Assembly (NCBI RefSeq): GCF_003334765.1
Contig: NZ_QOWT01000005.1
DNA length: 64,000 bases
Source of the DNA: Escherichia coli
GTDB taxonomy: Bacteria > Pseudomonadota > Gammaproteobacteria > Enterobacterales > Enterobacteriaceae
Reading direction: 5' to 3' (one strand)
Shown here: positions 60,001 to 64,000 of the stretch, in pieces
Numbering within the stretch: position 1 is the first letter of the stretch
How the letters are laid out: every line of letters starts with the position of its first letter
Program-made: the position numbers

Positions 60001-63000
60001 CCAGCAGGCGATCAAATAAGGGATATTTGGAAAAGACGATTCCTGCGGCAACTGTGGCGAACTGATCACTGACAGCACCTTGAGCTTACGAGCCGCTTCT
60101 ACACGGGTCTTTTCAATGGAGGTCAGGGTCAGTTTGTACAGCTCGGTGTTGAACTCTACTTTTGATTTGATTTCTTCAAAATCCACCGCCATACGGTTTA
60201 GCTTGTCACCCTGCGGCGCTGTGATTTTGCTTTTTTCTTCGTCAATTTGTGCCTGCAATGACTGAATCGCATTACGCGCACTCACAACTTGCGGGGCGTC
60301 TTCACGCAGATACGTCAGCAAGTTCCGCAGGTCCGCTTCCATCTGGATCTTCTGGCCCATCAGCGTATTGACTAACGTGCTCGCCGCCTGTGCCTGTGCC
60401 TGTGGATCCAGAACGTTGTTGTTGTCCTGATAAGAGAGCAATTCCGCTTTGCTGGCGTCCAGACGCTGGCGTGCCTTTTCCATCTCCGTTTCTGCAAAGG
60501 CAAGCTGGTCACGCGCGATGCGATGTGACATCTCATTGATAAAGCGCTCTGACTCTTTCAGCACGGTCTGGTTAAACTTAAGCGCAAACTCCGGGCTAAA
60601 GCCCTGCGTCTGAATATTCAGTAATCCGGTTTTATCGTCATACGAGACGTTGATACGGTCCTTGTAGTACTTCAGGAAGCCTTCTGCAGTTTCATCCTTG
60701 CTAAGATGATTAAGAAAATCGAGCCCGCTGTGGCTAAACGCTTCACGAAAATTTAGTTGCTTATCCAGTGCCGCCAGCATATCCGGCGAGTTGATGTACT
60801 CTTTCAGATACAACGCATCTTCTGCGGAACTGGGGTTAGAGGCACCCAGAAGCAGACCAAAATTCAGGCTGCCGCTGTTTAAATCATCCGAGCGTTTAAT
60901 GGCGACTTTCGACTCGCTCATATAGCGAGGCTGGCTGAAGATAGCCAGATAGATCAGCAGCACCGCCATCGGTGCCAGAATGATGATTTTCGCCAGGTGT
61001 TTTTGGATATCTGCCAGTGAGATGGCAGACAGACGAGCACGCATCCAGGATACGGCAGACTTCACTTTTATCAACATGTAACGATTATCAAAGTTTCAGT
61101 GGGGCGCAAACTCAATGAGAGACTAACCTCTCGCACCCCGTTGCTTAATTAGTCGAAAATGCGCACAAGGCCAGTGACTTTATTTGCCTTGTTGGTCACC
61201 AATAACGTTGAGACGCGGTGCTTTTGCATTTTTTCTTCCGCTTCAATGATCATGGTGTCTTCCGGTAGCGTCAGCGGTTCACGTGTCATCATCTGCGCAG
61301 CCGTGGCGGATGTCAGAGAATCCTCTTTTTCCATAAAGCGACGCAGGTCACCGTCGGTGATAATGCCCGCTAGCCCACCTTCTGCGTCTTCTACCATCAC
61401 CATTCCCTGGCATCCGCTGGTGATACGTTGAATCACGGTTTTAAATGACGCATCCAGCTGTACCGCAGGAACATCATGCTGCATGACATCAGCAACGCGG
61501 GTCAGCAGGCGACGACCTAATGAACCGCCCGGGTGATAGCGCGCAAAATCATTCGGCATAAATTTGCGTTGGTGGATCATGGCAATCGCCAGCGCATCGC
61601 CGATCGCCATCGTCAGCGTGGTAGACGTTGTTGGTGCAAGATTATTCGGGCAGGTTTCATTCGCCATGTGGAGTTCCAGCACGGCATCAGCATTTTTCGC
61701 CAGCGTGGAATTTCCATTATTGGTAATGGCGATAATTCGGTTGCCGAAATTTTTCAGTGAAGGAACTAGCTTGAGGATTTCATCCGTTTCACCGCTGGCA
61801 GAAATAAGGATCAGAAGATCGTAAGGCGTAATCATGCCCAGATCGCCATGGAAAGCTTCTGCAGGATGAATAAAGAAACTAGGCGTACCCGTAGAGGCCA
61901 GCGTCGCTGACATTTTACGACCGACATGCCCTGATTTACCCATTCCCGAAAGAATAACGTGCCCTTTACAGTTCATTATCAAATTAAGGACACGCTGGTA
62001 CTGCCCGGAATCCAGTTGTTTAGACAAGTTTTGTAATGCTGCGCCTTGTTCTGCCAGAGTCTGGCGAACAGAGGTAATTAGATATGGATCGATAGTACTG
62101 CTCTGGTCATCAGGTAAATGTCTTTCAGACATATCAGCTCCTTTGCACGGAAATAATGCCACAGTCACAACAAACCCGAACCCACTATAATTTATTTATG
62201 CTAAATCAATGGGTTGTAACAAAATTTTTAATGAATATAAAACCATGGTCAGTCCATGCTTATATGCAGGACTTATCACCTTCTTATTAAGTCGCAATGT
62301 CTCATGGAGGTGCGAAGATGCTGCAATATTACAGGCGAGAAGGGGAACCAAATTTTGCCCACCTATTTAACACACCCCTACATTATGAACAAGGAATTTA
62401 GGATTTTTATCATTTATTAAAATGTTTCCTACTTGACTATTAAACCAAAAAACAATTTATCAATTGATTATTTCCTTGTAAAAAAAGAACGTATGACCAT
62501 GTTATTAATAAATAAAACACGTAAATAATGGTGATGTTGTTTTGTGATTAACTATTTAAGAGTGGCATAATAAACAAGTTGACAATTTCTATGTAAAGAA
62601 GAAGAAAATAATAAAATTTTAGCGGTGACTATTGAATGATATGATAGTTGTGGTGTTGATTATTTCTGGTAATGAATGCGGAATTAAATCTGGCCGGATT
62701 GTATTTTTGCTATATCTATTTTTCAGGAGATTATTATTAAATATAAAAATAACAATGGTGATTATCTCCGGTTGACCTGGAGTCACGTATGCCAGCGAGT
62801 GCTTTCTTCCGGGCCTTCCTTCACTTCAGAGAAAAAGAGGCAATCATCAGGCTCTTTTTGAGTCATATGCGCCGATAATCAACTGTCTTGAACGTAAAAA
62901 TTATGGAGCAACATGATGCTACGATTCATTTCACTCTTCGTTCTTTCTGAGCATTGCGTTCAGGATGGTCAGCAATTTACGCATACTGTCAACCAGCGCC

Positions 63001-64000
63001 ACTTTTTTGGTTTTTCCGGCTGCTGACAGATGCATGTAAAATGCCTTTATCACCGGATTAAACCAGGTTACCACAAGCGCTGCCATGTGCAGGGCTGCTC
63101 TTGCCTCCGTACGCGCACTGGCGTCGTTCGGCCAGCAGATATGTGTGGGATAACAGGGATGTTATGTGAACTGAACTGTGTTTTGTTAGCGGGGGGATGT
63201 TTATTGATGATTCGGGAGTGTTTAAGACCTGATGGCGTTATGCTCCCAAGTTTATTTTATATAAAGATCCAAAAGCAAAAACCCGCCTTGTGGGCGGGTT
63301 CTTTAGAATAGTGGTGCCGGAATCGGAATCGAAAATTTCTTTTATCATATTGATATTAATATAATTTGTTTGGTTTGATTAAAAATGTACCCTCAATTAT
63401 ACCCGCAGTCCCTTTTGATATCGAAAGGGAATCACACTCGGGATCAGGCTGAGAGCACAGAAGGAAAGTACCTGGCTATTATATCGTTAATTCTGTCAAT
63501 CAGTTCCAGCCTTTTGAAAGTGATGTGTGCAGATCCCTTCTTAAAGTATTTAATGATGAACATCTCGTCTTCATAGCGCTCTTTACCCTGAACGGACTGG
63601 ATGTGACCATCCAGACGAATAGTGATGTTTTCCCGGTTGTCGGGGATCGGTTTGCCGCTGAACAGATGTAGCATTCTTTCCAGGTCGACGAGTCGGTCAG
63701 TCTGTTGCCCGGTGATAAGATGAAACCCCCACCGGTCCCACCTCACCAGGTTGTTGACGATAATTTTACTGCCAAATTTGCAGGGGCAATTGGTTTTGTA
63801 ATTCCAGCTCAGTCCCCTGAAGACGTTGATCACCCCTCGCTCAAACACCTCATCCTTATTCTGGTGTAGTTGTTCAAATGTGATCAGAATGTTCGCTTCA
63901 CTGATTTCCGGAAAATTATCGTACTCCAGTGACCGGTACCATGTATCACGGGCCTGTGCATCCATTAAGGAAAGCATCCCTGAACGTTGCATCAGGTCAC

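Follow-up and report, generated by a model that had tools for sequence, protein, structure and literature searches.

Between kpsF, the first gene of kps region 1, and the end of an integrated genomic island, an Escherichia coli contig (NZ_QOWT01000005.1; we call the 64,000-nt stretch analyzed here the window) contains a decayed transposase fragment and a hairpin. What are these elements, and did the insertion sequence bring the capsule locus with it? A reading of the sequence alone had assigned the fragment to the IS110/IS1111 family and proposed that it could mark an ancient acquisition junction. The analyses below indicate that the interval is very probably a series of old junctions stacked up along the minus strand rather than a functional unit (Table 1).

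Table 1. Features of the interval upstream of kpsF, in window coordinates
Feature	Position	Strand	Remarks
kpsF CDS, first gene of kps region 1	61149..62132	-	In strain D8 (100% identical), PGAP annotates 'KpsF/GutQ family sugar-phosphate isomerase'
PR1 features	62133..62357	-	Placed by published distances only
PR1-1 promoter and upstream H-NS/SlyA binding region (-1 to -224)	62358..62581	-	GC 26%
Spacer between kps regulatory region and relic (flanks IS right end)	62582..62879	.	No IS homology
3'-terminal relic of IS110-group insertion sequence	62880..63104	-	Positions 940-1164 of 1164-bp element; right end complete
Transposase pseudogene	62901..63113	-	Last 70 codons (residues 252-321), two in-frame nonsense codons
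~160-bp segment from IS truncation point to kps/core junction	63105..63264	.	Only with kps loci
Native pheV 3' flank with predicted rho-independent terminator	63265..63311	-	Hairpin 63277-63303, T-run to 63269
attR (pheV')	63312..63333	-	22-nt degenerate repeat of the final 23 nt of tRNA-Phe, TTCGATTCCGATTCCGGCACCA
Terminal non-coding DNA of pheV genomic island	63334..63443	-
DUF4942 domain protein gene, last of the island (3' part)	63444..64000	-	Cut by window end

A 3'-terminal transposase relic at the capsule border

The stop-bounded 76-codon frame in which the sequence-only reading recognized an IS110-like C-terminus is present on the minus strand, with codons at 62934-63161 and a TGA stop at 62931-62933. 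The NCBIfam model NF033542 matches the relic at profile positions 281-342 of 343 (E = 5e-8); its score of 32 bits lies under the 140-bit full-length cut-off, as expected for a fragment, and intact relatives score 219-227 bits, above that cut-off. The tblastn check that had been proposed for the fragment was significant: two intact 321/322-aa transposases aligned to the region with 76% identity over 70 residues (53/70 identities; E = 2e-30 and 9e-30). Against a plasmid collection, tblastn returned intact IS110 family transposases at 74-77% identity (E ~1e-20). Only model positions 60-86 of 87 of Transposase_20 (PF02371) are recognizable in the relic (E = 0.028). At the nucleotide level, a profile built from four IS copies matched with an nhmmer E-value of 2.9e-69 and an envelope reaching 63124, and blastn against two of the intact copies (L002 and L003) gave 85% identity (E = 1e-65 to 1e-70). 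These matches bear out a decayed 3' fragment of an IS110 transposase at the capsule border, 160 bp inside the kps/core junction. It comprises the last 225 bp of an element of ~1164 bp, leaving ~19% of the element.

Homology runs beyond the stop of the 76-codon frame. It passes both derived in-frame stops (the TGA and a TAG at 62919-62921) and the ancestral stop at 62901-62903, and continues up to the element's final right-end base; in this stretch, EE(stop)NES(stop)HHVAP(stop) aligns with EEWNESNHYIAP(stop). Over the C-terminal 70 residues and the 21-bp right end, the relic is collinear with intact IS110-group elements. The coding relic occupies 62904-63113 plus the ancestral stop, and the first ~16 codons of the frame (63114-63161) are not IS-derived. 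Taken strictly, the statement that the fragment has no start codon fails, as an ATG at 63086 opens a 51-aa ORF inside the relic; in substance it stands, this codon being the conserved methionine of the LYMAAL motif and no genuine start. The relic is already part of the RefSeq annotation: in strain D8, PGAP lists a pseudo-CDS, 'IS110 family transposase, incomplete, missing N-terminus', at 62931-63113.

Frameshifted transposase fragments upstream of 63161, which the sequence-only reading had suggested looking for, were found by tblastn and nhmmer neither there nor elsewhere in the 64-kb window, and nhmmer detected no other IS fragment in it. A single tblastn candidate at 63398-63454 (19 N-terminal residues, 9 of them identical; E = 0.009 when 1.4 kb are searched) is in our judgment a chance match, because it falls within the conserved end of the pheV island, beyond attR, where nhmmer was blank.

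The relic belongs to the IS110 subgroup and is predicted to be inert

The intact relatives (L002, L003 and L007) are 1161-1164 bp long and come from plasmids of enterobacteria and from chromosomes of E. coli; in the latter species, related intact IS110 copies occur in ~660 genomes. In the transposases of the intact relatives, PF01548 covers residues 9-155 and PF02371 residues 195-277, and their left end is a structured, non-coding region of 174 bp with variable internal loops. In IS1111-type elements, a long non-coding stretch with the guide RNA follows the transposase gene, in the right end, and the inverted repeats are subterminal; no such stretch follows the gene in the relic or its relatives. 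Because the non-coding region of the intact relatives is this 174-bp left end, upstream of the gene, and only 21 bp follow the stop codon (as in the relic), we place the relic in the IS110 subgroup; of the joint IS110/IS1111 assignment, the first half is thus retained and the second dropped. No intact copy is closer than ~87% nucleotide identity; the best non-self relatives lie at 85-87%, or at 94% for another short relic.

Compared with intact members of the group, of which we take IS621 to be the studied archetype, the relic lacks the N-terminal DEDD (RuvC-like) domain, the serine motif and the RNA-encoding left end, has two nonsense codons, and carries AT in place of a CT core. The DEDD domain (PF01548) is missing entirely, as the relic opens at residue 252. 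The DSGS motif, in which we presume the catalytic serine to lie by analogy with IS621, occupies residues 238-241 of the relative, upstream of the truncation point, and is therefore absent as well. A four-copy profile of the left end, the part that encodes the guide (bridge) RNA, had no match within 62100-63500. Compared with Rfam, which includes no bridge-RNA family, the interval and an intact relative gave only sub-threshold chance matches (P9, Trp leader, miRNA). Because the DEDD domain, the presumed catalytic serine region and the RNA-encoding left end are gone, the relic is predicted to be inert.

The right end is preserved up to its last base. Its final 30 nt are identical (30/30) to the right end of L007. 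The flanking dinucleotide, in contrast, is AT in the relic and CT in every intact copy; the CT core is defined by six independent right-end flanks, together with CT-ending left flanks where a left end was found, with the aid of a degenerate right-end pattern that occurs at only four loci. The relic's right flank starts with ATTATCGGCGCATATG. AT in this position would correspond to a C-to-A change at the core dinucleotide, or the right-end junction itself may have been rearranged. The exact junction between right end and flank had no match among 100,044 species-representative genomes, whose E. coli representative may lack kps. In a second relic (L008), TGG and TAC are kept at the positions of the two nonsense codons. 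A 20-nt copy of the right-end/flank junction is found near the second relic in O111:H8; its surroundings are unannotated in almost all of the listed genomes, and a 'hypothetical protein' is annotated in one.

The hairpin is the original pheV terminator

The hairpin on the other side of the kps/core junction consists of an 11-pair stem with six GC pairs, followed on the minus strand by TTTTTGCTTTTGG. It folds with -22.2 kcal/mol (z-score -3.7), and its features fit those of a predicted rho-independent terminator acting in the minus-strand direction; the terminator scan returned three terminator-like sites against 0.8 expected. The sequence-only reading had placed an isolated terminator at 63271-63306. 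The hairpin is real, with slightly different limits, and it is not isolated: it is the native terminator of pheV, with attR directly before it.

The same flank directly follows an intact tRNA-Phe both in a locus with neither kps nor island (L005) and in one with kps and no island (L006), and 63265-63333 matches sites annotated as tRNA-Phe in the listed kps-negative genomes. Its position 141 bp downstream of the DUF4942 stop codon, in the same orientation, might suggest that the hairpin is instead the terminator of that gene, or else a part of the IS. Such an origin had next to no probability in our assessment and is refuted: the identical hairpin stands behind the intact pheV of L005 and at the annotated tRNA-Phe sites, some matches to the island end stop at 63312 and exclude the hairpin, and IS homology ends 170 bp away from it. 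Rather, the hairpin is the original pheV terminator, displaced by the island; it may nevertheless act on DUF4942 transcripts.

The adjacent 22 nt resemble the 3' end of pheV (for comparison, TTCGATTCCGAGTCCGGGCACCA) and agree with the published 22-bp pheV' repeat beside kpsF (PMC10272209, PMC7387560), variants of which have been described as attR (PMC11537424). The sequence here, TTCGATTCCGATTCCGG-CACCA, unites the G-to-T change found in the published '19-bp' attR type and the one-base deletion found in the '23-bp' type, and represents a minor allelic variant. The arrangement is the one published for GI-pheV/PAI-V (PMC11537424, PMC10272209, PMC7387560): an imperfect 22-nt repeat of the pheV 3' end lies beside kpsF, and a P4-type integrase and an intact pheV lie at the opposite end of an island of ~64 kb that carries pap, pgt, Ag43 and the yee module. 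In D8, the intact pheV and the integrase lie 64,289 bp away. The attR and terminator are thus the published GI-pheV/PAI-V border and were already known. Island DNA begins beyond them: 63312-63443 also matches genomes in which the pheV 3' flank and the kps-linked DNA both fail to align, and the last gene corresponds to WP_001280485.1, which PGAP places in D8 at the equivalent of window 63444-64286.

The relic is old and drifts with its neighbours

The relic is present in ~1,700 of 5,426 complete E. coli genomes, essentially every one with a group 2 capsule (kps) promoter region; at 95% identity or more, 1,677 records carry it, compared with 1,699 genomes that have the PR1 region. Its truncation and both stops are common to nine diverse strains, from which we conclude that it is old. 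The shared truncation and nonsense mutations mean that the sampled group 2 kps loci have one ancestral arrangement on this side, of which the relic is a convenient neutral marker.

Could the relic have been retained because it serves a function, either by regulating kps region 1 from far upstream or through expression of its 51-codon ORF? Its near-universal linkage with the PR1 region and its ATG-initiated frame would be accommodated, as would retention in ~1,700 genomes; nevertheless, we consider co-option exceedingly unlikely. Changes in the relic among the nine strains are mostly nonsynonymous (~6, versus 2 synonymous), and its diversity (pi 0.014) equals that of kpsF (0.011) and the spacer (0.013), such that it drifts at the rate of its neighbours. 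Strains also tolerate insertions of IS1, IS66, IS21 or IS5, or deletions, in or beside it. Moreover, the known regulatory footprints stop at -224 (~62581), 300 bp from the relic. Linkage alone suffices to explain why the relic has been kept.

As in published kps loci, a long AT-rich stretch lies upstream of kpsF, in which we took the positions of promoters and of H-NS, SlyA and IHF sites from published maps. These maps locate PR1 225 bp upstream of kpsF, with PR1-2 at +132, PR1-3 at +181 and IHF at +140 (PMC5738388, PMC8960920), and footprints from -224 to -79 (PMC8960920). The corresponding window segment, 62358-62581, is the most variable among the nine strains (pi 0.038). The relic and the pheV terminator, 520-950 bp upstream of the PR1-1 start site, fall outside the mapped region, and neither appears in the two papers searched on kps regulation (PMC5738388, PMC8960920). 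No description of the relic turned up in full-text literature searches that combined IS110 with kpsF, pheV or 'group 2 capsule'.

The kps/core junction and the probable history of the interval

The kps insert spans 16.4 kb (window 46823-63264) in the intergenic site between yghD and pheV, and its junction with core DNA falls at 63264/63265. The segment between this junction and the relic is confined to kps loci: its sole match in the plasmid collection is a kps locus, and it is absent from the kps-negative L005. As a candidate for the relic's missing left end in decayed form, it showed only faint similarity by MAFFT; local alignments scored like those of shuffled sequences, and the left-end profile was blank.

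The relic lies only 160 bp from this junction and occurs in essentially all kps-positive genomes, and the junction follows a CT (GGATCT), the core of the intact relatives. These observations would suit a capsule locus delivered by an IS110 element or a pair of them, with the stub as the true acquisition junction, which was the suggestion of the sequence-only reading. Several points make this very unlikely. What faces the junction is the side on which the stub is truncated and not an IS terminus, and the 160 bp in between are not an IS left end. The far end of the insert has no second IS copy or fragment, nor has the rest of the window, and a CT at the junction is expected by chance once in 16. 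IS110-family elements move as single units via an excised circle, and we know of none that form composite transposons. We thus see no sign that the IS mediated capsule acquisition. There is a very slim chance that the stub and the 160-bp segment are all that is left of a vehicle or donor context with which the group 2 capsule locus reached the yghD-pheV site, or that related intact IS110 copies still recognize the orphan right end; in the latter case, such recognition would give rise to RNA-guided rearrangements where kps borders on pheV.

The stack of historical junctions is very probably explained by the following events. An IS110-group element of ~1.16 kb, of the RNA-guided DEDD/Ser recombinase type, once resided upstream of the kps region 1 promoter. 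Deletion or rearrangement probably then removed its left 940 bp, comprising the RNA-encoding left end and codons 1-251, and the 225-bp stub left behind, with its intact right end, carries the two nonsense mutations. The stub travels with the kps insert at the yghD-pheV site. An island with a P4-type integrase (GI-pheV/PAI-V; 64.3 kb in D8) integrated into the 3' end of pheV, duplicating 22-23 nt as attR and moving the terminator, the stub and kps away from pheV. Because no longer version of the same relic was found in any genome, the order of IS insertion, truncation and arrival of kps at pheV cannot be recovered.

Being co-oriented with the DUF4942 gene and kpsF, the displaced terminator should keep transcription that runs on from the island away from the PR1 promoters, which H-NS and SlyA control. 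This insulating role is predicted from position and orientation. The significance of the interval is small beyond the bookkeeping of junction coordinates; the exact positions serve to delimit GI-pheV and kps in assemblies and to design PR1 promoter constructs. Similarity to the spacer between the relic and the PR1 region was confined, in the plasmid collection, to kps loci. Within this spacer, 12 bp (AAGAGCCTATGG) after 62832 are missing in the window's lineage and present in the eight other strains.

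The interval upstream of kpsF records three separate events: the insertion of an IS110-group element that was later truncated, the placement of a kps (group 2 capsule) block beside the terminator of the tRNA-Phe gene pheV, and integration at pheV of a P4-type island. The first two may have come in either order. The window is E. coli chromosome, and a megablast search of 5,426 complete E. coli genomes returned 100% identity over the whole interval in several strains, including the dog isolate D8. All features described here are already in the RefSeq annotation or in the GI-pheV and capsule literature, and are ordinary.

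Features of the interval and its border (window coordinates)
Feature	Position	Strand	Remarks
kpsF	61149-62132	minus	first gene of capsule region 1
Studied interval	62133-63440		kpsF start codon to stop codon of the next minus-strand gene (DUF4942 protein)
IS110-group relic	62880-63104	minus	nhmmer E 2.9e-69
Hairpin AAGAACCCGCCCACAAGGCGGGTTTTTGCTTTTGG	63303-63269	minus	
tRNA-Phe fragment TTCGATTCCGATTCCGGCACCA	63312-63333		22-nt degenerate copy of the last 23 nt of pheV

The relic is the last fifth of an IS110-group element

The sequence-only reading had proposed an IS110 transposase remnant within a stop-bounded, 76-codon minus-strand frame, and both proved correct. The C-terminal part of this frame (codons 62934-63161) matches profile positions 281-342/343 of NCBIfam NF033542 ('IS110 family RNA-guided transposase'; E 5e-8) and, weakly, the end of Pfam Transposase_20. 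It also has matches to intact IS110 family transposases on over 1,400 plasmids (74-77% identity, E ~1e-20 for the intact copies among the matches listed), and the last 70 residues of the intact 321/322-aa transposases at loci L002 and L003 align with 76% identity (E 2e-30 and 9e-30). The alignment crosses two in-frame stops, setting EE*NES*HHVAP* opposite EEWNESNHYIAP* of the intact transposases, which places the ancestral stop at 62901-62903. The first ~16 codons of the frame (63114-63161) are not IS-derived; RefSeq/PGAP annotates an incomplete 'IS110 family transposase, missing N-terminus' at 62931-63113.

At the DNA level, homology (85%) continues 21 bp beyond the ancestral stop to the relic's right end. 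An nhmmer profile built from four intact copies (1161-1164 bp) matches the relic with its positions 940-1164, so that the relic comprises the element's last 225 bp (~19%), very last base included. The further frameshifted transposase fragments that the first reading had suggested looking for did not appear, as the profile has no second match anywhere in the 64-kb window. Because the relic begins at residue 252, beyond the DSGS motif (residues 238-241), has no IS left end (looked for in the AT-rich flanks and by profile in the 64-kb window) and is followed by the dinucleotide AT instead of CT, it cannot be active.

In the intact relatives, PF01548 (DEDD) spans residues 9-155 and PF02371 residues 195-277, and the proteins exceed the NF033542 cut-off. 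Non-coding DNA in these elements amounts to 174 bp upstream of the gene, a region that folds as a long stem whose internal loops vary, and just 21 bp after it; CT follows the right end in all six independent copies and ends the left flank wherever a left end was found. This layout is that of the IS110 subgroup, not of IS1111. In the RNA-like left-end fold (L003:1577-1750; columns 62-71 of alignment A1), the internal loops differ between copies while the stems are constant, and the L003 loop segment GCCTTCC has the exact sequence of 7 nt in the left flank of that copy, as a programmable guide loop would. Among full-length chromosomal copies, the one nearest to the relic (L007:2522-3490 on an E. 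coli chromosome, ~87%) lies in an island, with a 'zinc ribbon protein' gene on either side, and in that strain an internal stop makes it a pseudogene as well; ~660 other genomes carry an L007-type copy at 80-90% identity.

The relic is shared by kps-positive strains

We aligned nine kps-positive strains, among them E. coli B, ATCC 25922 and NCTC86, as well as a 29-kb record that bears a Klebsiella plasmid label. The truncation point and both nonsense codons are common to all nine. In O111:H8, another and shorter relic of this IS type, at a different locus, has TGG and TAC at the two stop-codon positions, showing that the stops are derived point mutations. The relic is as diverse (pi 0.014) as kpsF (0.011) and the spacer (0.013); most of its substitutions are nonsynonymous (~6 to 2), which is the neutral pattern. 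At 95% identity or more the relic occurs in 1,677 records, and the region of PR1, the kps region 1 promoter, in 1,699 genomes; the two are essentially always linked.

The O111:H8 relic (L008:3001-3089, ~85 bp, 94% identical) lacks nonsense codons, is followed by CT and lies in an island near ykgL/ykgM. About 275 bp away, L008:2708-2727 is an inverted 19/20 copy of the kps relic's right-end/flank junction, GTTGATTATCGGCG(C/T)ATATG. The surrounding DNA is unannotated in almost all genomes among the matches listed.

The capsule border lies beside the pheV terminator

Comparison with L005, a locus without kps or island, puts the edges of core DNA at 46822 (on the yghD side) and 63265. The kps insert thus spans 46823-63264 (16.4 kb), in place of ~100 bp of yghD-pheV spacer, with the relic 160 bp inside the kps/core border. 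That the relic could mark an ancient acquisition junction had been put forward from its place at this border, and is speculative; the idea that the IS mediated capsule acquisition finds no support, since the profile search of the window reveals no partner IS copy and the side of the relic facing the kps junction is the truncated one, not a terminus. Segment 63105-63264, between relic and border, and the spacer 62582-62879 are not IS-derived and have no relatives detected outside kps loci in the plasmid collection; the AT-rich flanks resemble the IS left end at chance level only.

The kpsFED genes and their upstream region also occur on two plasmid-labelled records, which may be mobilised segments or assembly/contamination artefacts: L004 (NZ_LR890315.1), a 29-kb circular 'Klebsiella oxytoca plasmid 4' with the GI-pheV end, relic and kps, and L024 (NZ_CP137739.1), an E. 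coli IncFIA plasmid in which IS5 interrupts the equivalent of ~62756.

The hairpin had been read as an isolated terminator, which is right as to the hairpin but incomplete as to its origin. In a search with 63131-63443, genomes without kps matched positions 63265-63333 at sites bearing a 'tRNA-Phe' annotation. We compared three configurations: yqgA-pheV-yghD (L005), yqgA-pheV-IS relic-kpsF (L006 and L019, kps without island) and the window. In every one the CCA end of tRNA-Phe, or of its fragment, precedes the hairpin at the same spacing. In D8, another 64,289 bp along, there is an intact pheV with a tyrosine integrase, and the intervening island (pap, pgt, Ag43, CbtA/CbeA and DUF4942 genes) is the published GI-pheV/PAI-V. 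Its attR (pheV') repeats of 22-23 bp adjoining kpsF are listed in PMC11537424, and the same repeats are used in PMC10272209 and PMC7387560. The hairpin is therefore the native pheV terminator, parted from pheV by island integration. It is co-oriented with the island's last gene and with kpsF, and would stop transcription out of that gene ahead of the kps promoters; we infer that this is the only plausible present-day activity of the interval. On the attL side in D8 (L013:1560-1619), the island's own hairpin terminator (AAACGGACCTCCACGGAGGTCCGTTTTT) directly follows intact pheV, standing in for the native terminator displaced by 64 kb.

Variation around the kps promoters

By published distances, PR1-1 starts ~225 bp upstream of kpsF (~62357), with PR1-2, PR1-3 and the IHF site in the 5' UTR (PMC5738388, PMC8960920), and H-NS/SlyA footprints extend to -224 (~62581; PMC8960920). 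The relic lies 300 bp further upstream, outside every described regulatory element. Other ISs have repeatedly invaded the stretch from the kps promoter region to pheV (equivalents of ~62700-63200; loci L009, L010 and L017): IS1 adjoins the equivalent of 63195, IS66/ISEc22 has taken out most of the relic, and IS21/ISEc10 sits at ~62695. Strain viability therefore depends on neither the relic nor the pheV terminator.

The interval varies most in the H-NS/SlyA-bound stretch upstream of PR1-1 (62358-62581; pi 0.038, versus 0.010-0.014 elsewhere). Substitutions there are concentrated in two short patches, 62444-62447 and 62561-62566, and could reflect promoter alleles. At 62832/62833, 12 bp (AAGAGCCTATGG) present in all eight other kps-positive strains examined are missing from the window's lineage; the gap lies a little upstream of a weak AAAAAGAG...CTCTTTTT hairpin, next to the right end of the IS.
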